Assembly: GCA_021399395.1 (NCBI GenBank)
Contig: JAAFKJ010000042.1
Span: 1 to 31,812 of the forward strand
Direction of reading: 5' to 3'
Length of the DNA: 31,812 nucleotides
Source: Candidatus Heimdallarchaeota archaeon
GTDB lineage: Archaea; Asgardarchaeota; Heimdallarchaeia; Heimdallarchaeales; Heimdallarchaeaceae
Made by a program: the position numbers and the translations under genes. The notes beneath the pieces were generated by a model that saw nothing but the letters and a program-made list of their open reading frames with translations, did not search any database and was not told where the DNA came from. Of the stretch, positions 3,993 to 30,430 are shown piece by piece (within the stretch, counting starts at the first letter, position 1; the number at the start of each line of letters is the position of its first letter).

Positions 3993-5123
3993 TCAATAAA
4001 TCTTGGGAAACATCTTATACTTGGCTATTTCGCGATAGTCATCCCAAAGTTTACCATATTTCTTCTTACACCGTTTTTCATCTCTCCATGCTCTTTGCAT
4101 AAGAAGAATTAGTAAAGAACCAGGGAGAATTAAAGGTAATGCGGAGATCAAACCTGTTGTCAAAACAATCACTAAATAAGTAAGAATTTCTCCAGTATAG
4201 TTTAGCTTTCTTCCCTTTCCCCAGAATCCAGAGATCAGAATTTTCCCCTCTAAAGTTTTTGCAGGTTTGAACCAGATTTTAGTATTCGGGTTTTTCTTAA
4301 ATCTATACTTTTGCAGGTTTGCACCTCTGAAAATCCAGATTGAGAGGAGATATGCAACACACAGAAAGACAATTACATAGACACTAAAAGCAAGCTCTTG
4401 GCTAATAAGGAACCATCCTGCAATTGAATAGAAGAATGGTACATAAACTGTGTCTCCCCAAACTAACATTAAACCAAAATTCTCAGACATTATATCCCAG
4501 GTTGAGAGCATGAACTCTTCGAAAACATAGTGAGTAAAAAGATAGAACCACCAGAAGGCTTGGTATAACCACATCTGTGGAAGAATATAGCCTTGATTGT
4601 TTAACTGAGTAAACATAAAACTCCAATTTATGATGGATAAACCAATTAAAGATGGCTGGTATGCAAACATTTTCAGATCAACACCCCACCAAGTTGGATT
4701 TAATTCAGAACCAAACCAAATATCATGCAGAATTCCTTTGAACCCTTTGCGTCTAGCTTCACCTTGTTTTCTTCTTCCTAGAATAAATAGTAAGATAGTC
4801 CATACTATCACAAAGATATTTGCTACTATCAAAAGAGACCAGAATCTTATAGCAATATATTCTAAGTTCCAAATATAAGAGGAGACTCTTTCGTAAAGAA
4901 CAAGTACTAATATTGCACTAAATGTTGCTAAGAGGAATAGGATTAAACCAGTTAACTTGTACTCTTTTCTAGTTCCATCTTTCAAAGGTTCTCCTAGTCC
5001 TTTGATCCCTGGTAGAAACTTTGTTCCTAGAAACATAATTGTAAAGAAAATTAGTATCATTAGAAATGCAGTAAGCAGATTCATTGGAGTTACAGGAAGT
5101 AATAATTCGAATATACCAGCCAT
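3993..5123 (-). CDS. ERG4/ERG24-family sterol reductase (Delta14-sterol reductase / LBR / DHCR7-like) integral membrane protein
   Basis: GSELNP, DIMSENFGLMLVWGDTVYVPFFYS, ANLQKYRFK, ILISGFWGKGRKLNYTGE and RAWRDEKRCKKKYGKLWDDY match family signatures. ATG 5123 follows AGGTG (the ORF track uses GTG 5132). Confidence 0.9.
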   Translation of the reverse strand: MAGIFELLLPVTPMNLLTAFLMILIFFTIMFLGTKFLPGIKGLGEPLKDGTRKEYKLTGLILFLLATFSAILVLVLYERVSSYIWNLEYIAIRFWSLLIVANIFVIVWTILLFILGRRKQGEARRKGFKGILHDIWFGSELNPTWWGVDLKMFAYQPSLIGLSIINWSFMFTQLNNQGYILPQMWLYQAFWWFYLFTHYVFEEFMLSTWDIMSENFGLMLVWGDTVYVPFFYSIAGWFLISQELAFSVYVIVFLCVAYLLSIWIFRGANLQKYRFKKNPNTKIWFKPAKTLEGKILISGFWGKGRKLNYTGEILTYLVIVLTTGLISALPLILPGSLLILLMQRAWRDEKRCKKKYGKLWDDYREIAKYKMFPKIY

Positions 5124-5308
5124 GGTTGACACCTAATTAGTATGTATTTTTGATGGTTACTTAAAACAATTATCCTTAACATCATCTATAGTTATATTAA
5201 AAAGTGCTTCATTAAAACAGAAAGCAAGCAATAGAATAAGATTTAAATATTCTCAATAAACTGAGAATGCAGTATTAGAATCTTGAGAACAAAAAAGGTC
5301 AGATAAAT

Positions 5309-9188: not shown

Positions 9189-9211
9189 TTTGTCATGTTG
9201 GCATACTAACC
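9189..9211. repeat. Left imperfect terminal inverted repeat TTTGTCATGTTGGCATACTAACC
   Basis: 19/23 identity to the reverse complement of 10580-10602. Contains the tnpB stop codon. Confidence 0.75.
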
Positions 9212-10600
9212 AAACATGGTTGAGCTTGTTTCATAGATACTGTGGGTGTCATTCCTTGTGGGTCTACACACACTCTACGTGGGTACATCACATACCCTCC
9301 TACCCCGTTCACTTTACGCGAAGGTAAAGCTTTCGGATCGCTTTTGACTAAAATGTTGTACGCAGCGTTAACATCAGCGTTGATCCTATGTCCTAGTGCA
9401 GAGGTGAACAACCCTCTAGAAGAGCGCTTACCTGCATACTTAGCTCTTTTTTGGGAAGACTCATTATCTAGAAAACTGCTCTTGGAAGTATAATCTTCAG
9501 GAATAAGAACGATATGTATCCCTTGTTCTTCACACTTGTATTTCAGCTGATTGATAATTCTCAAAAATGGGATGGTGACGAACATCTGAGTGACTTTCTT
9601 ACCCAGATTCACTTGTTGCTTCCATTGGGGGTTATAACCTATGACCACCTCATGTAAGCCACGATTTACCAACAAATCTACTAGATATTTGGTGAGCTGG
9701 TGGAGAGCGTTCTTGAGTTTCCGTCTATACTTCTCTTTCAGTTTATAGTAGGCTAGCCCATAGACTAGCTTGTGCTGTTGTTTCAGTTGTTTCTTCTGCT
9801 GTTGGACATACTGTAATCTTAGTTTTGTTTGGAGTTTCATATAATATTGGATTATGGATTTTATCCCTTTTCCGTGATCCTTGATAACAATCGGTTGATT
9901 GCCGAGGTTATCTACGAAGGTCACGAGGTTGATGGTTCCTAAATCGATGGCACCTTTTCTTGTGTTCTTTTTTCTTAGCTTGGGGAGAAATTTCTCATAG
10001 ACTAGCTCAAGAGTGTATCCCACCTTTCTAGGGATAACCCTCACTTCTTTCAGTCGAGTGCTAGCTGTCAGACGTGTTTTATAGTAAAACCCCACTTTCT
10101 GTGGTAAGACTAGCCACCCATTCTTGATCTTAGCTTGTTGGTTGGTAAGAATCGCTACACTCTCCCCATCTTTAGGTTTATACTTAGGAGGTTTGGGTAG
10201 AGCGTAGAATTTCTCGGGATGGCGCTTCCACTCCTTCTGTGCTTGAAAATACGCTTTCCAATTCCTAGTTAGAAGTTTGAGGGTGTGTTGAGCTGTATGT
10301 GCTGGTAACACTCTATAACACTCTTCTTGGTTAAGAAGAGTATTAAGATCGTAATAGTTAAGGAAACTATTTTTTTTGTTAAGTGATTGTTTTACCAGAA
10401 AATTTGCTCGACTGTAGAGGTTTTTAACTTGATGACAAAGTTTGCTTAGAGTAGGCTGAAAAGGGAGTTCAATGCATTCTACTCTCAGTACTTTACTCAT
10501 CACTTTTCTCTTTGTTTTTTCCTATAAAAGCTCCCGTAATATCTTACTTTCAGTCTTGTTTTAAGTTGATGAGTAATACGTTTAATATGACTACATGACA
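9191..10600 (-). mobile_element. Non-autonomous TnpB-only element bounded by imperfect terminal inverted repeats
   Basis: TGTCATGT at 9191 and ACATGACA ending at 10600. Interior is visibly more G/C-rich than the flanks and carries no tnpA. Inserted between the MFS stop and a poly-T tract. Confidence 0.7.
9193..10503 (-). CDS. tnpB: RNA-guided endonuclease TnpB (IS200/IS605/IS607 superfamily), rearranged RuvC-II type
   Basis: KNLYSRANF, RNWKAYF...PKPPKYK, RuvC-I AIDLG, VVIGYN (Gly at the canonical Glu position), PEDYTSK (alternative Glu), RuvC-III NADVNAAYNI. Zn-finger cysteines absent. Confidence 0.93.
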   Translation of the reverse strand: MMSKVLRVECIELPFQPTLSKLCHQVKNLYSRANFLVKQSLNKKNSFLNYYDLNTLLNQEECYRVLPAHTAQHTLKLLTRNWKAYFQAQKEWKRHPEKFYALPKPPKYKPKDGESVAILTNQQAKIKNGWLVLPQKVGFYYKTRLTASTRLKEVRVIPRKVGYTLELVYEKFLPKLRKKNTRKGAIDLGTINLVTFVDNLGNQPIVIKDHGKGIKSIIQYYMKLQTKLRLQYVQQQKKQLKQQHKLVYGLAYYKLKEKYRRKLKNALHQLTKYLVDLLVNRGLHEVVIGYNPQWKQQVNLGKKVTQMFVTIPFLRIINQLKYKCEEQGIHIVLIPEDYTSKSSFLDNESSQKRAKYAGKRSSRGLFTSALGHRINADVNAAYNILVKSDPKALPSRKVNGVGGYVMYPRRVCVDPQGMTPTVSMKQAQPCLVSMPT

Positions 10601-20698: not shown

Positions 20699-22108
20699 CT
20701 AAATCAGCTTTAATAAAAGAGGGTTGCGTTTGATAGCTAACTCAATAGCTTTATCTACAAAACTTGAAGGAAACCCAGAATGTTCAAACAAATTACCAAA
20801 AAGCGGTTCCGCTTGCTCTTTTGAATAAAGGGAAAAGGAAGTTATGATATATGACATCGACACAAGTTTTCTTAATTCATTGAATATTTTTATTGCAGTT
20901 TTAGTAATATCCTCATTGACACTTTTCTCAAATAATCCGAAGAAATATTCACTCTGTTGCTGACCTTTAACAGTTCCTTCTAACAGATTAATTTTCATCA
21001 AATCTTTATATTCTGCTTTAGATAAATCCAGTTGATTAAATGTCCCAATATTCATTCCACATAGACTAGTATCTAATTCAGTTAGAGCGGAAATAGCATC
21101 CTCTTGAATAGTTATCCAGCTTTGTACCTTTACTGCAAGATGTTGATTAAACATCGAAAGAGTATCAATTGCAAGCTTTACAGTTAATTTGTCTCCTGCT
21201 AACAGTACTTTTCTTCCACTAATAACAGAGTATAGTACATCACTAATTTGTCTTGGAATAGCCGTGGAAAGGAATGCTAAAGAAAGTTCCTCAACATCTG
21301 TATGAGTAAAATGATTACCGGGATCTTCCATATTTTGGATAATGTCAAGAATATCTAACATCTCGAAATTATAATCTTGATCGGTCAAAATGCGGAGTTT
21401 TTCTTCAATCAATGGAAATAATCGAAAGACCGTATGGTCTAAATCGGGTTTGAATTTTAATATTCCTACATTTGTTCTCATTTCAGCTTTTTCTATTATA
21501 ACCAGTTCTGATGTTTTCTTCTGAGGTACAAATAGTAGCATTCCAGTTAGTTTCTTATCAAAATCATAAGTCAGTCTGTGCTGAATAATCATGTTTAGAG
21601 TTTCTATAGTTTCTTCTTTCTTACCAACAGATTCTATAATCTCTGTATCTGTTTCATCAAAGTGAATTAGACTAAAAACAAAAGGTTCAGATTCTCTTAG
21701 AGGATTCTTTGAGAAAAATAATGGTAAGTTGAAGATATTATGAAGAACATGTTCTAGAATTAGTTCAGCTTCACCTTCACTTATTAAAGTTTCATCTCTA
21801 CCTTCAAGCATAGGAGATGCACTAAGTTGTATCTGTTCTAATATTTGAGCGAGTTGACGGTCTGAGAAGAAAGTCTCTTCAACTTTAGTTTCCATGATGA
21901 ATATGAAATCGTGAACTTCAGCAAATGAGATGTTTTTATCATGATAGGATATAGATTGTAATTCTTGTCTATGAACTTCTTTTGCGAATGTAATAATTGC
22001 ACTGATAAGGCTTGTAGCCAATATCTGTTGAGTGTCATCTGCTGATTCTGGTTTTGAAGCTAACAATAATCCTGATGCCGTTACTAATGATAATTGTAAG
22101 CTTTGCAT
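20699..22108 (-). CDS. Longin + DENN-like protein (SMCR8/folliculin-like C-terminal core), paralogue B
   Basis: N-terminal longin pattern SLVTASGLLL...LATSLISAIITFAKEV and C-terminal VLYSVISGRKVLLAGDKLTVKLAIDTLSMF. Confidence 0.65.
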   Translation of the reverse strand: MQSLQLSLVTASGLLLASKPESADDTQQILATSLISAIITFAKEVHRQELQSISYHDKNISFAEVHDFIFIMETKVEETFFSDRQLAQILEQIQLSASPMLEGRDETLISEGEAELILEHVLHNIFNLPLFFSKNPLRESEPFVFSLIHFDETDTEIIESVGKKEETIETLNMIIQHRLTYDFDKKLTGMLLFVPQKKTSELVIIEKAEMRTNVGILKFKPDLDHTVFRLFPLIEEKLRILTDQDYNFEMLDILDIIQNMEDPGNHFTHTDVEELSLAFLSTAIPRQISDVLYSVISGRKVLLAGDKLTVKLAIDTLSMFNQHLAVKVQSWITIQEDAISALTELDTSLCGMNIGTFNQLDLSKAEYKDLMKINLLEGTVKGQQQSEYFFGLFEKSVNEDITKTAIKIFNELRKLVSMSYIITSFSLYSKEQAEPLFGNLFEHSGFPSSFVDKAIELAIKRNPLLLKLI

Positions 22109-22962: not shown

Positions 22963-24369
22963 CTAGAGTAAATAATCAAGTAACATATTCCTTTTTACTG
23001 TCATCTCAAGAGCTTTTCTAACGAAACTAGATGAATAACCTGATTTTGAACTCAATTCTTTCAATTTTATTCTCCCTTTGGTTTCATCAACTAAACTTAT
23101 TGATGTTAAATCAAGTGATAAAGAAACAATATTCTCTAACTCCAAAGCTATTTTTGTCACTAGTTCTGAAATTGAGAGTTTTTTGATGGTATCATACAGT
23201 TTTTTGAAATGACTACTTGATTTTAATCCGGTTGTTTTCCCCGAATTTAAATTGATACTTGTATCAGATTCAGTTAAAGTTTCATTATCGAATAAAATCT
23301 TGTATACCTTTGTAGACATCCCACATATACGGGCAGTCAAATCACATTTTCCATTTTGAGTTATTTCAGTTTCTGAAATCCATGGGTTAACAGATGTTTG
23401 CATGTGTTGATTAAATATTGAAAGTGTGTCAATGACAAGTTTTACAGTGGGTTTATCGCCTATTACAAAAATCGGCTCTCCAACAACTGCTGAATAAATA
23501 GCTTTATCCAGATTTCGACCAACTATTCTTTCCAAGAAAGACGGAGACAAATCTTCTAGGTTAATACTAGAGATTCTATTTCCAGGATCATCAATATCCA
23601 TTAGAGTGTTAATAATCTCTTCCATATTGTGATCACTTTCTTCTTCTGATAGAATGTGAAGCATTTGATCCATCATAGTAAATAATCTGAATAAAACCAA
23701 ATCTAATTCTCGAGGAGTTTTTAATATACCAATTTTGGAGGTTTGACCATCAGTATCTACAATTATGTAAACGGTACTATTATCTTCAGGAAGATGTGTT
23801 ATTATTCCTCTTAGAGCACCTTTACATTTCTCATTGGCTTTTAGAGTGTCTAACATAAGAGCTATCGTCGGTATAAAAGAGCCAGAACCAACTTTATCCT
23901 TAATTTCCCATCCTTTATCTGTATGCAAGAGAGTAAACTGAGCACGCTCTGCCTTGTGTAATGGTTGTTCTGATATAGAATAATGAAGTAGTTGAATATC
24001 TTGTAAACATTTATCTAAGATTATTTCTGCTTCCCCATCAGTTATTATATCGGGGTCAACTCCTTCTAAAATTGGTTCGGTACAAGACTTCAGCTGTTCT
24101 AGTAACTGTCCCAGTCTTTTCTCTGTTAGAGTTGAATCTTCATCTATTGTTTCAAGGATAAGAACGAAATCATGAACTCTAACAAAAGAGACCGTGCGAT
24201 CATGATAAGAGATTGATTGTAACTCTCTATGATGAACTTCTTTTGAGAATGAAATTAATGCTGTCATTAAGCCAGTAGCAAGAATTTGTCTAGTATCATC
24301 TACAACTTCTGGCTTTGAAGCGAGTAGAATACCTGTAGAGGTTACTAGTGATACCTTAATGTTAAGCAT
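22963..24369 (-). CDS. Longin + DENN-like protein (SMCR8/folliculin-like C-terminal core), paralogue A
   Basis: N-terminal SLVTSTGILL...LATGLMTALISFSKEV and C-terminal AIYSAVVGEPIFVIGDKPTVKLVIDTLSIF. Colinear with 20699..22108. Confidence 0.65.
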   Translation of the reverse strand: MLNIKVSLVTSTGILLASKPEVVDDTRQILATGLMTALISFSKEVHHRELQSISYHDRTVSFVRVHDFVLILETIDEDSTLTEKRLGQLLEQLKSCTEPILEGVDPDIITDGEAEIILDKCLQDIQLLHYSISEQPLHKAERAQFTLLHTDKGWEIKDKVGSGSFIPTIALMLDTLKANEKCKGALRGIITHLPEDNSTVYIIVDTDGQTSKIGILKTPRELDLVLFRLFTMMDQMLHILSEEESDHNMEEIINTLMDIDDPGNRISSINLEDLSPSFLERIVGRNLDKAIYSAVVGEPIFVIGDKPTVKLVIDTLSIFNQHMQTSVNPWISETEITQNGKCDLTARICGMSTKVYKILFDNETLTESDTSINLNSGKTTGLKSSSHFKKLYDTIKKLSISELVTKIALELENIVSLSLDLTSISLVDETKGRIKLKELSSKSGYSSSFVRKALEMTVKRNMLLDYLL

Positions 24370-24461
24370 TAATAGATTTTGTAAATTAGCTATATATTAA
24401 AATTTACTTTAAGCAGTACTTCAAAAAATAGATAGAAAATGATAAGATAGAATGATTTGAA

Positions 24462-25322
24462 CTACTTCATTCTTTTCTCGCGATTTCTCTTATCACGAAT
24501 CTCATCCATTATTTCAGGAGTTAGAGTAGTAACACCCATTTCCTCAGCTTGCTTAACAATCTGTGTCATAGCTTTCTTAAGAAAAACTCTTGGAATAGCA
24601 ACAATCTTTGCACAAGCTTCATCAGTCCAATGAACATCAGAATCAAGTCTATCGGCTTGATAACGAACAGTACCTAAATCTACGCCTTTGCCTTTTGGTA
24701 ATGCTTCTGAATATGGAGTTCTAGGTTCACTGAACCAGAAGTGTTTATTGTCTCGATAACCATAATCGATTGGTAAAGATGGAAATTTCCCGTTCCCTTC
24801 GACAAGAGCGTTATGCCATTTCTTCTTCATCAAAATTCGATCTATTCGTAAGAGAAAGTGACTCTCATCTTTTGTCCCATTATAGTGAAAAGATTCACCA
24901 TCATCCCAGGTACATTCAAATATCTGAACCGATTCTTGGACATACTTAGGTATTTTTCCATTGGTCATTTTGCCGTTTGACGGTTGCAAAGTAAAGATGC
25001 TATCATTAAGTTTTTCTTCCGATGTTTGACCTGGAAAACCTAATTTTACTGTATTCTTCAATATTTTCTTATCATAAGGTATGAAGTTCAAAGTAGCTTT
25101 TCTTGTTCGTAGAACATTCTGTGCAGTATTACTAGTGTTTCTTGAAATCAGCATCATTGCATGTTGATCTGCTATTCCAAATGGAAAAACTAAGGAGTAA
25201 GGTCCAATGTTAGTAACACCAGTTTCAGAGATTGTCGTTATTAAAACAACCGGCATAGGATAAAATGACGAGGTTTGATAAAAATTATCCAATATTCGTA
25301 CTTCTTCAAAGTCGTTTGTCAT
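24462..25322 (-). CDS. Flavin reductase-like (DIM6/NTAB split-barrel) protein fused to a C-terminal PCP_red-like domain
   Basis: PMPVVLITT...NIGPYS...SNTAQNV...ATLNF...FEC, then C-terminal WTDEA...IPRVF...AEEMGVTTLTPEIMDEIR. Confidence 0.78.
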   Translation of the reverse strand: MTNDFEEVRILDNFYQTSSFYPMPVVLITTISETGVTNIGPYSLVFPFGIADQHAMMLISRNTSNTAQNVLRTRKATLNFIPYDKKILKNTVKLGFPGQTSEEKLNDSIFTLQPSNGKMTNGKIPKYVQESVQIFECTWDDGESFHYNGTKDESHFLLRIDRILMKKKWHNALVEGNGKFPSLPIDYGYRDNKHFWFSEPRTPYSEALPKGKGVDLGTVRYQADRLDSDVHWTDEACAKIVAIPRVFLKKAMTQIVKQAEEMGVTTLTPEIMDEIRDKRNREKRMK

Positions 25323-25327
25323 TTAGT

Positions 25328-26161
25328 TCACCTCTTCTGTAATTGTTGGTATTGCATTTCGAACCAAGATTTCTTTCGTATCATCTTTCTGTACCATGCT
25401 GGCATTACCCACCCAAGGTACATTGTAACATAAGCTGTTGCATATGCGAGTGCCCTAAAAGCTGAAACTGTAATCATCAAAGCTGGAAGATTAGAAATAC
25501 TACTGTCAAAAGCTGAAAGCAACCCCGCCAGAAGATATAAAAACACTCCAATACCAATTGTTTGTAATCCTCTCTTTCTAATAGGTTGATCTGATTTTCT
25601 TGCAAGCCTTAAAGCTCTAATTCCTATTCTACTTGTAACAAAAATTGAGATTACTATTTGAGCTACAAGGATGGGCCAGGTATATGAAATTGTAAATACA
25701 TCATTAGTAATGTAGGTTGGTTCTGAAAACAATGAATTTGTATAGATATTATCATAAGCAATTACAGCAGTAATAAGACCATAAATTACCATTATTATAG
25801 CAAAAAGATAGGTTTTGACAATTTCATTATCTTTTAAAATATGTCTGCAGCCAAAGAAATAGAGAAATGCAAATGCAGGGAGGATAATCATGGGAGTTAA
25901 AGATCCCATCTGATAAATAGTATCTGTCATTACACCTTCATTGTAAATGAGCGAAATACGGTATGCAATGCTAAAAGCTGATGTTAAAGAAAATAGGAAG
26001 TAAGATGAAAGTAGCATGAATGTACCAACTGTTTTCTTGCGAAAGAAGTTGACTAAGAGCGTGATAACTAGTGCTAGACTGAAAGCCATGTTTATTACAG
26101 ATGAAACAATAATGAAAAATGAAGCAGGTTCTATTAATGAAAGATCAACCATCATCATCAC
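25328..26161 (-). CDS. Stand-alone seven-transmembrane protein
   Basis: Seven hydrophobic segments, basic TM5-TM6 loop (RALRLARKSDQPIRKRG), basic C-terminal tail. Start overlaps the GTPase stop. Confidence 0.8.
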   Translation of the reverse strand: MMMMVDLSLIEPASFFIIVSSVINMAFSLALVITLLVNFFRKKTVGTFMLLSSYFLFSLTSAFSIAYRISLIYNEGVMTDTIYQMGSLTPMIILPAFAFLYFFGCRHILKDNEIVKTYLFAIIMVIYGLITAVIAYDNIYTNSLFSEPTYITNDVFTISYTWPILVAQIVISIFVTSRIGIRALRLARKSDQPIRKRGLQTIGIGVFLYLLAGLLSAFDSSISNLPALMITVSAFRALAYATAYVTMYLGWVMPAWYRKMIRKKSWFEMQYQQLQKR

Positions 26162-26685
26162 CCGATAAACTCATCAACAAACCATTTGAAGGAATTGAAT
26201 ATTCCATCTCCTGTCTTTGCTGAAGTTTCAAAAACTGCCCATTTAAAAGGCAAATCCAGCAAATTGAATTCTTCAATAAAGAGTGATTTTTCTATTACGT
26301 TGGGTTCATCACTCTTATTGAGCAAAATCAGTATTATCAGATCTTGATCCAATTGTGCGTGAATGGTTTGTTCAAACACTTCCTTTGCTTCATCAAATCT
26401 CATAACATTAGATCGATCAATAACGAATACAATTCCATCAGATTTTTCGTTGATATTGTGCCACATGTTTCGAAAATCTTCTTGACCAGCTAAATCAAAA
26501 ACATTAACCTGCAAATTTGGTAGATGTAGAGTTTCTCTGTTAACACCCATAGTCGGTGTTGTATCAACAAATTCACCAGTTTCTAGAAATCTCAGTATTG
26601 TTGTTTTACCAGCATCATCAAGACCACAGATAGTTATATCTGCATGCTTTGTTCTGGTTCGGAATAGTCTTTGTAAGAATGACAT
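26158..26685 (-). CDS. Arf-family small GTPase
   Basis: G1 GLDDAGKTT, G2 PTMG, G3 DLAGQ followed by FRNMW, G4 NKSD, G5 TSAK, N-terminal amphipathic MSFLQRLF. ATG 26685 follows AGGTG (the ORF track uses GTG 26697). Confidence 0.93.
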   Translation of the reverse strand: MSFLQRLFRTRTKHADITICGLDDAGKTTILRFLETGEFVDTTPTMGVNRETLHLPNLQVNVFDLAGQEDFRNMWHNINEKSDGIVFVIDRSNVMRFDEAKEVFEQTIHAQLDQDLIILILLNKSDEPNVIEKSLFIEEFNLLDLPFKWAVFETSAKTGDGIFNSFKWFVDEFIG

Positions 26686-26697
26686 TTTATTCCACAC

Positions 26698-27192
26698 CTA
26701 GTCCCAAAGATCGTCAGATAACGCGTCTATAGCATTGCCATTTTTGTCATTCCCTTGTTTTGGAAAATCAAATTTTATGGTTGAAGTAGAAGTTATCTCG
26801 ATCTTGAATTGTCCTTTGTTAAAGCCTTTGTATAGTTTTGGTAGAATTTCTTCCAGAGTATGTGTTGCGAGTAAATCTTTCTTTTCAAGTTCTGCTACTA
26901 CCCATGAGAACACCTGTTTTATAGAGTTTGCATCATAGTTGCTGGTATTAAACACAGCGACTAATGAAGCAAGATTATCTCTGTTTTCTGCAGATGGTAT
27001 GCGAAAGATAAAACTTGTTAAATTCAGATTATTAAAGGTCGTTGAAGCAAAATCCCCAGGATTGGATCCCATAGGGATGGTTTTGTAAACAAGCTGATTC
27101 ATGGAATCAGACGGAATGACATCAGGGAAAGATTTGACTAACTCTAATCCCCGTGTGCCCATATTGACTAAACATAAACTTAATGGTTTCAT
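26698..27192 (-). CDS. Stand-alone uDENN/longin-like protein
   Basis: LCLVNMGTRGLELVKSFP...LVYKTIPMG...SFIFRIPSAENRDNLASLVAVF fits the uDENN pattern. Immediately upstream of the GTPase. Confidence 0.62.
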   Translation of the reverse strand: MKPLSLCLVNMGTRGLELVKSFPDVIPSDSMNQLVYKTIPMGSNPGDFASTTFNNLNLTSFIFRIPSAENRDNLASLVAVFNTSNYDANSIKQVFSWVVAELEKKDLLATHTLEEILPKLYKGFNKGQFKIEITSTSTIKFDFPKQGNDKNGNAIDALSDDLWD

Positions 27193-27560
27193 TTAAAATC
27201 CCCTTACTAATCATGATTTACCTCATTCGTTTAAATATCTTTTTAAAACTGCAAAACGCTATTTCTAAGGGGTTTATCCGCGATTTTAAGCATTTTCGAG
27301 TGTGCAGTAAAGTGCACAAACGACGTTTTACTGAACGGTGTTCAGTCTAATGCAAATCCGTACATTTTCAATCCCCATATCAAGAGCATAATGAACAGAT
27401 GTTAACTTAATTAATTAAGATTGCACAACATTCATAATTTATTTAGATAAGTTTTTTAATAAAAAAAAGAACCAATTCAATTGAGATTTTAAGTTTAAGG
27501 AGTTATACCGACAGAATTAGGTTTTAATCTCATTATCAGATGGAATTCGAGTTCATTAAG

Positions 27561-27573
27561 ATAGTTTTATAAA
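27561..27573 (+). promoter_or_regulatory. Putative TATA box region (ATAGTTTTATAAA) for tldD/tldE
   Basis: TTTATAAA about 60 bp upstream of ATG 27633. The identical 13-mer occurs upstream of the second tldD. Confidence 0.5.
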
Positions 27574-27632
27574 TTTCTTAGGGTGAGAATGGTTAGGTTA
27601 AATATTTAATTTTAACCAATAGGTGAAATTAA

Positions 27633-29051
27633 ATGGAAAAAGATTATGTTTTTGATTTATTACAAAAAGCAGTTGAAAAGGGTCAAAAACTTGGTGGAGA
27701 GTTTATTGAAGCAAGATATGATGATTTGCAAGAAACAACTATTAACTTAACTAATGAAATGGTTAAGCAATCATCATCATTACACCGAAAAGGAATAGGT
27801 GTGATGGCATACTATAACGGAACACCAGGTTACAGTTTTACACCTGAATTGAGCAAGGAGAGTATAGAGGAAGCAACTATCAGAGCTGTAAAACTAGCCA
27901 AATCAACTGATAACAGAAATACAATAAAACTAGATTTTGACGAAATTCCATCAGTTAAAGATAAAATTGATGCGAAGTTAAAGAAACATCCTAGAGATTT
28001 TGAGTTTGGAGAAAAATTAGAACTTCTGAAAAGAGGAGTTGGATCCATTAAAGAAGAAATTGAACCAACAACTACAACTGGATTATATGGTGAATCATAT
28101 GGTGAGAAGTACTTTGTAAATTCAGAAGGGTCAGAAATTTTTTGGGTTCCAATAGTTGTAGATTTGCGAATGATTAGTGTCATCATTAAAGATGGACAAC
28201 AAGCTACAGCCTTTGAAGGAACTGGAGCATCAAAAGGTTTCGAGTTTTTTGAAATGAAAGGATCATCCCCTGAGGAAGTTGGGAAATTATCAGGTAAAAC
28301 TTGTAAAGAAGCACTTGATGCAGTAGCAGCTCCAGCAGGAAAAACAACAACACTCGTATCGCCACAGATGGGGGGAGTTGTAGTTCATGAATCTTTTGGT
28401 CACTTATCAGAATCAGATTTTGTTGTAACTGGTCAATCTCCTCTGTCAGATAGAGTTGGAGAACAACTTGGAAGCGATCACGTTTCAATTTATGATGAAG
28501 GAATTACTGAATATGGAGGGTATTATCTCCCATATGATGATCAAGGTATTAAAACAGGAAAGACCGTCCTTCTCGAAGATGGAATCTTGAAAGGATATCT
28601 TCACAATAGAGGAACAGCAAAGAAAATGAATGCAGAAATGACTGGCAATAGCAGAGCAATTAACTTCCTATTTAATCCGATAGTACGAATGAAAAACACA
28701 TACTTTGGAAAAGGAGACTTAACATTTGAAGAAGCTGTAGAACAAGTAGGAACTGGAGTATATGCGGTAGACATGTCTGGAGGACAAGTCGGTCTAGACG
28801 GAAATTTCATGTTTAATTGCAGCAAAGGTTACTTGATCGAAAACGGTGAGATAACTAAACCAATCAAAAATACTGCTTTATCAGGAAACATTCTCGAGCT
28901 ACTGAAACATGTTCAAGGAGCAACAAAAGAAATCAAAATTAAAACCGGTTACTTCGGTGGTTGCGGAAAAAACGGACAGAATGGATTAGCTGTAGGATAT
29001 GGAGGTCCGAATGTTATAATGGGTCAAGTTCTCGTTGGAGGTGCACAATAA
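27633..29051 (+). CDS. tldD: TldD family metalloprotease, catalytic subunit
   Basis: HESFGH (HExxGH), YDDQG, RMKNTY, GGQV, GGCGK conserved Cys. AGGTGA SD. Confidence 0.92.
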   Translation: MEKDYVFDLLQKAVEKGQKLGGEFIEARYDDLQETTINLTNEMVKQSSSLHRKGIGVMAYYNGTPGYSFTPELSKESIEEATIRAVKLAKSTDNRNTIKLDFDEIPSVKDKIDAKLKKHPRDFEFGEKLELLKRGVGSIKEEIEPTTTTGLYGESYGEKYFVNSEGSEIFWVPIVVDLRMISVIIKDGQQATAFEGTGASKGFEFFEMKGSSPEEVGKLSGKTCKEALDAVAAPAGKTTTLVSPQMGGVVVHESFGHLSESDFVVTGQSPLSDRVGEQLGSDHVSIYDEGITEYGGYYLPYDDQGIKTGKTVLLEDGILKGYLHNRGTAKKMNAEMTGNSRAINFLFNPIVRMKNTYFGKGDLTFEEAVEQVGTGVYAVDMSGGQVGLDGNFMFNCSKGYLIENGEITKPIKNTALSGNILELLKHVQGATKEIKIKTGYFGGCGKNGQNGLAVGYGGPNVIMGQVLVGGAQ

Positions 29052-30430
29052 TGTCGCTAGAAGATATAAGGAACAAAGTATTAGGGATAGCTGATCAAAC
29101 AGTCAAATATGCTAGAGATCTCAAAGTCCCATCTGCAGAAATTTTTGTAATTGAGCAATCTACTACTAGTCTGACAGATAATAAAGGTAAAGTAGACAGT
29201 AGAGATGGTATTATACAAGGAATAGGGATAAGAGCAGCGATAGGGAAACAACTAGGTTTTGCGAGTAGTACAGGTTTTGAAGATGAAACACTAAAGAGCA
29301 CTCTTCAAGCAGCTTATAATATCGCTAAAGTCAGCCCAGAAAATCCTATGTTCAATGGATTTGTAGCCGAAACAAAAACAGCTAAAGAAGGTATTCTTGA
29401 TTCAAATATACTTAATCTTGAAGCTGATGATTTAATTGAGAAATGTAATATTATGAATCAAGAAGTAGATCTGAGTGATAAAAGAATTATTTCCGGAAGT
29501 TTTGGTTCAAACATTTCACACACGGGATATGCAATTGGAACCACTGAAGGATGTTTAGCATCTTCTTTAACAACATCATTTTCAGCTAACTCTTACTTTG
29601 TTGTTACAGAAGCAGGAGATAGAAAAACAGCAGGTGATTTCATAAATAGTAGAGAGATAAAATCAGTTGAAGGAATTGCACCAAGAGCATTGAACAAAGC
29701 ACTTTCCTCTCTTGGTTCTAAAGCTTTTGGAGGTTCTGAAGTTCTTCCTACAGTTTGGGAAGCTCGTGAAGCAGCATCATTTCTAGCTTTTGCATTTTTC
29801 AATGTATTCTCAGGAACTACTTATGTCGAAAAGAGCAATCCATGGTCGGACAAACTCAATGAACAAGTTGCATCTAAGGAGCTAACTGTCATAGATGATG
29901 GTCAAAAACCTGATACTCAAGCATGTCATGCAATTGACTCAGAAGGAACACCTAAACAAACTACAACAATCATTAAAGAGGGTATTCTACAGACCTTTCT
30001 GTTCAATAAAATGTATGGTGAGGTAGCAGGTTTCGCTACTACAGGGAACGCACAAAGAGGAGGACCAATGGGTGGTGCAGCACCATATGAAAGTACTCCA
30101 AGCGTAGGTTTTAATCAGATTCTAGTAGAAGAAGTAGCCAAGAATCTTAACGAGCAGATAGCTGAGATGGATAGGGGAATCTTAATCACTGGTACTCCAA
30201 TTGGATTATTTACAGCTAATCCAGTTACAGGTGATTTCAGTGTCACTTGCAATGATACTTTTCTAATTGAAAATGGAGAAAAAGTTCATCCTCTGAAATC
30301 TGTCAGCATTGCAGGCAACTACTTTGAAACTTTGAATAACATCCGTTTCATTGGTAACGATAGAGAACCGTCAGGGTGGCCAATAGATACACCTAGTATG
30401 ACTTTTACTGGACATACAATCTCTGACTAA
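29051..30430 (+). CDS. pmbA: TldE/PmbA family protein, non-catalytic partner
   Basis: GIGIRA...GFASST, DSEGTP, TTGNA, NPVTGDFS, IENGE, IAGN, no HExxH. ATG 29051 overlaps the tldD stop (TAATG). Confidence 0.9.
   Translation: MSLEDIRNKVLGIADQTVKYARDLKVPSAEIFVIEQSTTSLTDNKGKVDSRDGIIQGIGIRAAIGKQLGFASSTGFEDETLKSTLQAAYNIAKVSPENPMFNGFVAETKTAKEGILDSNILNLEADDLIEKCNIMNQEVDLSDKRIISGSFGSNISHTGYAIGTTEGCLASSLTTSFSANSYFVVTEAGDRKTAGDFINSREIKSVEGIAPRALNKALSSLGSKAFGGSEVLPTVWEAREAASFLAFAFFNVFSGTTYVEKSNPWSDKLNEQVASKELTVIDDGQKPDTQACHAIDSEGTPKQTTTIIKEGILQTFLFNKMYGEVAGFATTGNAQRGGPMGGAAPYESTPSVGFNQILVEEVAKNLNEQIAEMDRGILITGTPIGLFTANPVTGDFSVTCNDTFLIENGEKVHPLKSVSIAGNYFETLNNIRFIGNDREPSGWPIDTPSMTFTGHTISD

Follow-up and report, generated by a model that had tools for sequence, protein, structure and literature searches.

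What does a membrane protein of seven helices and no output domain do when its gene overlaps the stop codon of an Arf-family small GTPase? The question is raised by a window of 31,812 nucleotides (contig JAAFKJ010000042.1 of assembly GCA_021399395.1, positions 1 to 31,812; G+C 34%) from a Candidatus Heimdallarchaeota archaeon. An earlier reading of this DNA, made from the letters alone and here called the sequence-only reading, had proposed a pairing like that of a G-protein-coupled receptor (GPCR) with its G protein, in which the seven-transmembrane (7TM) protein would signal through the adjacent GTPase either as receptor or in the role of guanine-nucleotide exchange factor (GEF). Topology, fold, synteny with the GTPase and conservation of the inner face all speak for such a pairing, but a third gene had been missed, and the longin-domain protein that it encodes is the steadier neighbour of the 7TM protein. 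The conserved unit is a triad, not a pair. It lies on the minus strand and consists of a longin-domain protein of 164 amino acids (26698..27192), which is NPRL2/NPRL3 (GATOR1)-like in its predicted fold and matches no Pfam family, an Arf-family (ArfR-type) small GTPase (26158..26697, 179 amino acids from a GTG codon) and the 7TM membrane protein (25328..26161, 274-277 amino acids), recognised by hydropathy, AlphaFold model and charge count. In the map of open reading frames (ORFs) the three follow in close succession as 27192..26698, 26697..26158 and 26161..25328, and two further minus-strand ORFs, 25322..24462 and 24369..22963, continue the row.

The triad recurs in two sets of related loci. 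In the first, 20 loci from reference genomes were scored by tblastn of the window proteins; 16 had a solid 7TM match, and all 16 carried longin, GTPase and 7TM genes in one order and on one strand, the distance from GTPase stop to 7TM start ranging from an overlap to about 12 nt. The second set was drawn from 400 Asgard genomes, scored with three protein profiles, and comprised 36 strong full-length 7TM places (E <= 3.1e-16), all within two GTDB families, one of them that of the window itself. The longin gene stands directly upstream in 35 of these 36 loci, the remaining one (L024) being cut by the start of its contig, and the GTPase gene lies between longin and 7TM in 28, including one (L056) in which it is split by a stop codon. 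The sequence-only reading had expected homologues of the 7TM gene to be enriched beside GTPases, and in these 28 loci order and strand are indeed the same. As the gene order recurs so widely, it is more than chance. The genes that flank the triad differ between loci (for example ABC-2, MFS, PadR and metabolic enzymes).

The window's own genome, which is 81.8% complete, holds one triad copy. Other genomes have up to six listed 7TM places, and one of them has a seventh complete triad (L069, on G081:C29) that the phylum-wide search had missed; since this search scored no more than six candidates in each genome, the counts that it gives are lower bounds. Matrices of pairwise identity, one for each of the three proteins, correlate with each other (7TM with GTPase r 0.89, 7TM with longin r 0.80, GTPase with longin r 0.84; none of 2000 permutations reached any of these values), and the cassettes have therefore been copied as blocks without exchanging parts. 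The 7TM protein evolves fastest: its mean pairwise identity is 0.30, while that of the GTPase is 0.56 and that of the longin 0.44. Some cassettes are decaying: the 7TM gene of L038 contains two TAA codons, the GTPase genes of L056 and L072 are split by a stop, and L065 combines a change of the longin Arg71 to Cys with a truncated 7TM tail. L038 and L056, the latter with its GTPase in two ORFs, were left out of the identity matrices and of the conservation counts given below.

Read from its GTG codon, the 7TM ORF codes for 277 amino acids, while the gene call in the protein collection begins at the third ATG (26152) and yields 274 (P0001, the numbering used here). The junction with the GTPase gene, GGGTGATGATGATG on the minus strand (26150..26163), divides as GGG TGA TGA TGA TG: the GTPase stop TGA occupies 26160..26158, the 7TM GTG 26161..26159, and ATG codons start from 26158, 26155 and 26152. 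With a GTG and three successive ATGs at this site, it is ambiguous over 9 nt which codon is the true start. A Kyte-Doolittle scan found seven hydrophobic segments. The AlphaFold model, built on 19 homologues, has a mean predicted local distance difference test score (pLDDT) of 87.0 and a predicted template modelling score (pTM) of 0.82; it contains transmembrane helices (TM1 to TM7) at 9-39, 42-70, 77-106, 110-138, 159-186, 190-214 and 223-249, a beta hairpin in the second extracellular loop (ECL2), and after TM7 a short helix at 252-259 followed by a helix at 263-273, the tail having a pLDDT of only 63-68 and its last helix being of modest confidence. Lysine and arginine residues add up to 21 on the inner side, with three in the first intracellular loop (ICL1), three in ICL2, eight in the TM5-ICL3-TM6 stretch and seven in the tail, compared to none in the N-terminus and none in each of the three outer loops, and the topology is thus N-out/C-in.

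The 7TM protein has no output domain. No Pfam family matched it, and its relatives, which are labelled Heimdallarchaeaceae or Thorarchaeota at their source, are all short: 54 representative clusters among 1.84 billion representatives (61-338 amino acids) and 31 proteins in an index of 5.8 billion (163-296 amino acids). The features that the sequence-only reading had described therefore stand, namely seven transmembrane helices with the N-terminus outside, the lack of a kinase, cyclase or chemotaxis output domain, a strongly basic TM5-TM6 loop, a helix-8-like tail, start codons that overlap the GTPase stop, and a TM7 without lysine, for which reason a rhodopsin had been rejected. TM7 (223-249) contains no lysine in the model-based boundaries either, and the retinal-binding lysine of microbial rhodopsins is thus absent.

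At the level of fold, the packing of the 7TM model is of the GPCR type. When the model was aligned with VIA-align, without a Foldseek prefilter, to 48,161 representative chains, the top 50 matches all had the GPCR fold (Z 16.1-12.6, root-mean-square deviation (rmsd) about 4.2, 213-246 residues aligned); the ranking was viewed for these 50, so closeness to GPCRs means that no other fold occurs among them. The best match was the adhesion receptor ADGRV1 (9fte_A; Z 16.1, rmsd 4.2, 233 aligned), followed among others by a GABA-B receptor (Z 14.7) and a class T receptor (Z 14.5), and class A, class B and Frizzled receptors were present together with two de novo designs of a "GPCR-like fold". The top Foldseek matches were likewise all GPCRs (E 3.3e-4, TM-score about 0.5). 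The structure-alignment tool itself warns that unrelated bundles of helices may score up to about Z 14, and solved GPCRs are very numerous; we therefore read the result as GPCR-type packing and not as homology.

Sequence profiles gave a different picture. No profile placed the protein in any 7TM family, neither in Pfam nor in PDB profile searches, which found no 7TM chain, and among 42 members of the family GPCR families were matched only once, by Srsx at E 0.56. HisKA_7TM was rejected because none of the 42 members matches PF16927 and all relatives are short, with no fused output domain, even though an automatic Atlas cluster name is "Histidine kinase N-terminal 7TM region" and one cluster at a score of 0.87 has 10% of members that carry PF16927 (Atlas scores under 0.9 are leads only). 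The identity of a transporter was considered as well, since 11 of the 42 members match NCBIfam NF042915 ("MAB_1171c family putative transporter"), with a best score of 22 bits against a cut-off of 100. This match was taken as compositional because a 660-amino-acid ORF resembling the major facilitator superfamily elsewhere in the same genome also matches.

GPCRs of classes A, B and C typically have a disulfide between TM3 and ECL2, and those of class A carry the micro-switches D/ERY and NPxxY. The single cysteine of the 7TM protein, C102, lies at the cytoplasmic end of TM3, and the usual disulfide is therefore absent. R103 is invariant at the same end of TM3, and P251 is invariant at the break between TM7 and the next helix, not inside TM7.

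Conservation in the family is confined to the cytoplasmic half. Among 35 sequences, all 16 positions with at least 90% identity are found there (16 of 132 positions, compared to 0 of 135 in the outer half): T41, G43, T44 and L47 in and after ICL1, Y98, F100, R103, L106 and D108 at the end of TM3 and in ICL2, R175, G195 and I199 around ICL3, and Y245, G247, W248 and P251 at the end of TM7. The conserved face comprises the motif KT.GT in ICL1, Y..F..RH.L.D at the TM3 end and in ICL2, the stretch TM5-ICL3-TM6 with its basic residues, and Y.GW..P at the TM7 end, the last being followed by the basic tail. The corresponding Fisher p of 8e-6 is too strong because the sequences are related, but the pattern is plain in the alignment. 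Outside the cytoplasmic face, a closer set of 19 sequences has strong conservation at one position only, the basic residue 233 near the middle of TM7 (window about 25457-25459). Of 27 cassettes that include a GTPase, 25 have Arg there, and of seven that lack one, four have Arg and three Lys.

The longin model (pLDDT 78.8) shows the bb-a-bbb-aa order of strands and helices of a longin. Its best structural match by VIA-align was chain B of GATOR1 (8fw5_B; Z 12.7, rmsd 3.5, 144 aligned), and further matches were the yeast SEA complex (8adl_S, Z 11.4), a Lokiarchaeal longin (8yqg_B, Z 10.9) and the folliculin complex (6nzd_H, Z 9.3). The top 14 Foldseek matches all came from GATOR1 or SEAC, with a best E of 1.2e-6. 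By its model, the fold is closest to the longins of NPRL2/FLCN type. The loop between beta4 and beta5 contains an arginine, Arg71, that only one of 35 copies lacks; the eight copies from loci that have no GTPase all possess it.

The neighbour between longin and 7TM protein is Arf-like, as the sequence-only reading had it: Pfam Arf matches with 139.3 bits (cut-off 22.3, E 1.2e-40), whereas the G-alpha family reaches only 36.4 bits, below its cut-off of 48.8. Closest by sequence in the PDB are Arf1 (3lrp_A, 6.6e-32) and 8oun_A (3.8e-30); 8oum_A matches at 5.5e-25 and is, like 8oun_A, named "GTP-binding protein". Its start is probably the ATG at 26685, the one that the sequence-only reading had taken (175 amino acids), because the homologues align from Met5. 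Across 17 homologues the P-loop GLxxAGKT, the switch-I Thr, DxxGQ, [NH]KxD and SA are invariant. The N-terminus reads MSFLQRLF (MSFLxxLFK in the family), with F3 and F8 invariant and L7 nearly so in the same 17 sequences, a stretch that, judged by its sequence, is predicted to be an amphipathic helix of the Arf type.

How could the three proteins work together? We hypothesize that the three genes encode a complete small-GTPase switch of Heimdallarchaeia in which the 7TM protein is the subunit embedded in the membrane, its inner face serving as a platform on which longin and GTPase dock and the longin acting through Arg71 as GTPase-activating protein (GAP), and we give this reading an even chance. 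It draws on the synteny, the duplication in blocks, the conserved inner face, the NPRL2-like longin fold with its kept Arg71 and the intact G motifs described above. The cytoplasmic face of the 7TM protein would bind the longin, and the GTPase would dock on the same face via the longin or beside it, so that its nucleotide cycle would be confined to one particular site at the membrane. The longin, which is probably dimeric, would act like the longins of GATOR1 and FLCN type, reaching the nucleotide pocket of the GTPase with Arg71, while the 7TM protein would hold it at the membrane and control either how the GTPase is reached or how it is activated. A separate input for each paralogue could be provided by the variable outer half and the ECL2 hairpin, and the Arf-type N-terminal helix may couple GTP loading to membrane binding. 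As the longin is never missing, we infer that it is the primary partner of the 7TM protein. It is the steadier neighbour, and eight loci have longin and 7TM genes only, for which reasons the pairing seen by the sequence-only reading may run via the longin.

A number of observations weigh against this proposal. Eight of the 36 strong loci (L036, L037, L038, L059, L060, L061, L063 and L067) contain longin and 7TM genes, 24-129 nt apart, without a GTPase, and this state needs three changes on the tree of the 36 7TM proteins, which means that the GTPase left the operon more than once. Three orphan GTPases of the same subfamily (L070, L073 and L074; E 5e-53 to 5e-68 against the profile) have no longin or 7TM gene within 2.5 kb. 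One-to-one pairing is consequently not absolute, and since orphan GTPases and GTPase-less longin-7TM pairs occur in the same genomes, the latter may use the former in trans. In other Asgard lineages, distant relatives of the 7TM protein are found by themselves, with a longin in 0 of 12 cases and a Ras-type GTPase upstream in one of 12; they match only the third of the protein from TM5 to the tail (E 1e-10 to 1e-3), bring the family to 69 of the 400 genomes when all hits are counted, and were excluded from the 36. Correlated divergence is no proof of contact because linked genes share their history. A search of proteins of 519-2000 amino acids with the family alignment found no fusion of the 7TM protein with a partner and no longer form, which is weak evidence.

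Further points of this kind concern the individual proteins. The putative equivalence of R71 with the catalytic Arg of NPRL2 is drawn at the level of a nearly collinear alignment (model 2-160 to chain 6-161). A GP motif at the start of strand 2 is tied to GAP-type longins in a 2025 survey (Traffic; PMC12290439), whereas the window longin reads G15-L16 at this site and no copy has the motif: G15 is kept in 32 of 33 scorable copies (one has H) and is followed by L, I or V, never by P. The tail motif R259-x-K261-x-W263 of the 7TM protein speaks in favour of the proposal: it is often shortened or lost where the GTPase is absent, and W263 is kept in 0.93 of 27 GTPase-bearing loci compared to 0.57 of 7 GTPase-less loci, but this comparison is based on 7 GTPase-less sequences in about 3 clades.

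This last difference leads to the strongest of the alternatives, the direct coupling that the sequence-only reading had in mind. The 7TM protein would bind the GDP-bound GTPase through TM5-ICL3-TM6 and the helix-8-like tail and act as its GEF, with the longin as a separate GAP. Besides the weaker tail motif in loci without GTPase, the exclusively GPCR-type structural matches (both the top 50 of 48,161 and those of Foldseek), the overlap of GTPase stop and 7TM start, the adjacency in 28 of 36 loci, the Arg that does not vary at the inner end of TM3 and the basic TM5-TM6 junction are all consistent with it. In a three-part switch with one GAP-like member, moreover, the role of the GEF is left open. 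A GTPase that is activated in connection with the insertion of its N-terminal helix into the membrane would be well served by a membrane-integral GEF, and in eukaryotes an Arf-family GTPase is activated in this manner in the Sec12-Sar1 system. Zhu et al. (PMC11914678) found Asgard proteomes to lack a counterpart of Sec7 or Sec12. However, bundles of helices attain similar Z scores without kinship, the search for GPCR families returned nothing beyond Srsx, and the 7TM protein keeps its longin more faithfully than its GTPase (35 compared to 28 of 36), eight loci having the former only. The ICL1, ICL2 and TM7-end motifs persist in these GTPase-less loci and cannot be specific for the GTPase. We regard direct GEF activity of the 7TM protein as unlikely, although it is a serious competitor.

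In a further alternative the direction of control is reversed: the GTP-bound Arf-type protein would bind the 7TM tail to sort or cluster the 7TM protein or to switch a transport or enzymatic activity of it, in the manner in which Arf/Arl proteins of eukaryotes handle membrane cargo, and the longin would only time the switch. Eukaryotic Arf-family proteins recruit effectors to membranes, as described in 10.1101/2024.02.28.582541, and the tail is basic and conserved; the buried Arg233 could, together with the conserved Y51, Y98, Y206, Y241 and Y245, mark a site inside the bundle. Against such a cargo or effector role, no transporter or enzyme family is matched (the recurrent NF042915 hit has 22 of the 100 bits required), the outer half is unconserved, which would be unusual for a catalytic or transport site common to all paralogues, and it is not explained why each copy should have a longin of its own. 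We consider this improbable. That the genes are merely co-transcribed without direct contact of their products, as parts of a shared pathway or regulon or with the 7TM gene as an unrelated hitch-hiker in the operon, is in line with the evidence obtained being gene order but very improbable, because the order is kept down to about 26-30% 7TM identity and through repeated duplication into unrelated surroundings, a pattern not easily accounted for unless the unit is under selection.

The platform of 7TM protein, longin and GTPase can be compared to several known systems. Longin-domain GAP complexes comprise GATOR1 (NPRL2-NPRL3), which acts on RagA/B, FLCN-FNIP, which acts on RagC/D, and C9orf72-SMCR8, which acts on Arf; LYCHOS/GPR155, a lysosomal protein with a GPCR domain, is reported to bind GATOR1. 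The triad longin resembles these GAPs in that it models best onto NPRL2/Npr2 and that one loop of its longin core keeps an Arg, and its gene is accompanied by those for a small GTPase of its own and for a membrane protein shaped like a receptor. In contrast to longins of the GATOR1 type, it is a bare 164-amino-acid longin with no DENN or C-terminal domain, its GTPase belongs to the Arf type and not to Rag, the triad contains no second, different longin, and the GP motif reads G-L.

MglA-MglB is a prokaryotic system of a Ras-like GTPase and a GAP of the Roadblock fold. Like there, and like in the Asgard operon described by Liu et al. (10.1101/2020.10.19.343400), in which a LAMTOR1-like Roadblock protein is encoded with a Rab-like GTPase and with a DENN protein, a small GTPase stands beside a regulator of the Roadblock/longin superfamily in a conserved operon. 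Unlike in these two systems, the GTPase of the triad is of Arf type, its longin is NPRL2-like, and the third member is an integral 7TM protein instead of a soluble DENN protein. The triad is thus a variant of the known operon of small GTPase and longin/Roadblock protein, and its new member is the receptor-shaped 7TM protein. By analogy, the logic of an Arf-family switch activated at the membrane by an anchored partner would be shared with Sec12-Sar1. Sec12 is a single-pass beta-propeller protein, whereas the membrane member of the triad is a 7TM protein that would be a GEF only under direct coupling.

With GPCRs, the 7TM protein shares the N-out bundle of seven helices, the GPCR-type packing of its model, a conserved Arg at the TM3 end, a TM5-TM6 junction of basic character and a short helix that follows TM7, and its candidate partner is a member of the Arf family, the predicted origin of G-alpha (PMC12554972, citing Anantharaman 2011). 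The two systems differ in that profile kinship and the TM3-ECL2 disulfide are lacking in the triad 7TM protein, that the triad has no G-beta/gamma and that its GTPase has no helical-domain insert. It could nevertheless be imagined that in the triad a relative of the system that gave rise to receptor/G-protein signalling has survived, with a 7TM GEF, an Arf-family GTPase and a longin GAP in the place of a regulator of G-protein signalling (RGS). The archaeal lineage closest to eukaryotes would then possess insulated and multiplied cassettes of receptor, switch and terminator. We treat this ancestry, including the picture of such cassettes, as a long shot.

The genes downstream of the triad are specific for its clade. 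A flavin-reductase-like gene (24462..25322, minus strand, 286 amino acids) begins 5 nt past the 7TM stop; its Pfam matches, Flavin_Reduct with 22.3 bits (cut-off 27) and PCP_red with 20.2 bits, are both below cut-off. It follows the 7TM gene in loci L002-L006, is reduced to its last 61 residues in L001, the closest relative, and is absent from L007-L016. Being reduced in L001, it is dispensable for the triad. Next come a 468-amino-acid protein (22963..24369, minus strand) and, beyond a GNAT gene on the opposite strand, a paralogue of 469 amino acids with 37% identity to it (20699..22108, minus strand). Both copies lie downstream of the triad in L001, L003, L004, L005 and L006, one is visible in the truncated L002, and a single relative of 452 amino acids follows the triad in L011. 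The 286-amino-acid and 468-amino-acid genes are therefore clade-specific additions outside the conserved triad.

Folliculin/C9orf72-like (longin-DENN) identity of the 468-amino-acid protein is a lead only: its nearest Atlas cluster, from Heimdall archaea, has a score of 0.84, with 23% of members carrying PF11704 (Folliculin), and eukaryotic Folliculin/C9orf72 clusters are near as well, the scores spanning 0.84-0.75. Matches of the two paralogues to Pfam stay below threshold (Intu_longin_1 at E 0.0017 for the first, Fuz_longin_1 at E 0.023 for the second) and fall on the first longin domains of INTU/CCZ1/HPS4 and FUZ/MON1/HPS1. A PDB profile search with the family of the 468-amino-acid protein gave no match, and kinship of this protein with the 164-amino-acid longin was rejected at an hhalign probability of 0.2%. 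The two paralogues may be a heterodimeric regulator of longin-DENN type for the same GTPase.

Upstream, 440 nt of intergenic sequence (27193..27632) separate the longin gene from a divergent TldD gene and, from the ORF map, are presumed to hold the promoter region of the triad operon. The sequencing runs listed for window positions 24400-27300 are of DNA from sediment and cold-seep metagenomes only, with no RNA run among them. The TldD/PmbA metallopeptidase pair (27633..30430, plus strand) also adjoins the triad in L001, L004 and L006, in L004 on the same strand and not divergently, and lies farther away in L012. Elsewhere in the window, a protein of the ERG4/ERG24 family (3993..5132, minus strand; Pfam E 2.8e-63) represents a membrane enzyme family of the sterol-reductase type in an Asgard archaeon; the family is best known from eukaryotes. 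A TnpB/Cas12f-like protein (9193..10503, minus strand), with OrfB_IS605 and a Cas12f1-like TNB domain, belongs to an element of the IS200/IS605 type. The contigs on which relatives of the window genes lie bear the labels Heimdallarchaeota, Thorarchaeota or Promethearchaeati.

We found no description of a longin-GTPase-7TM triad in the literature searched, although supplements may list the 7TM family. Operon, gene neighbourhood or synteny are not mentioned in the main texts of 10.1101/2024.02.28.582541 and PMC11914678, and terms of this kind are missing from the main text of Eme et al. 2023; a structural-clustering preprint of 2026 mentions Asgard "7TM proteins" and GPCR clusters without context. 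It has been shown by others that Asgard Arf-type GTPases behave as nucleotide-dependent membrane switches, and the triad GTPase resembles the ArfR/AArf proteins in its Arf signature, amphipathic N-terminus and catalytic Gln. According to PMC11914678, it has yet to be worked out which exchange factors, GAPs and effectors natively serve the Asgard Arf proteins, and the survey of 2025 (PMC12290439) poses the question which GTPases are the partners of GAP-like Asgard longins.

To both questions the triad contributes co-inherited candidates that match one another, namely one GTPase together with one NPRL2-like longin and one dedicated membrane protein as putative partners, and since several diverged copies sit in single genomes, natural specificity controls exist. 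If the 7TM protein turns out to regulate the GTPase, a membrane-integral regulator would be known for an archaeal Arf for the first time. The finding would then bear on the origin of lysosomal nutrient signalling, in which longin GAPs act at membranes, and, more speculatively, may bear on the origin of the coupling of GPCRs to G proteins.

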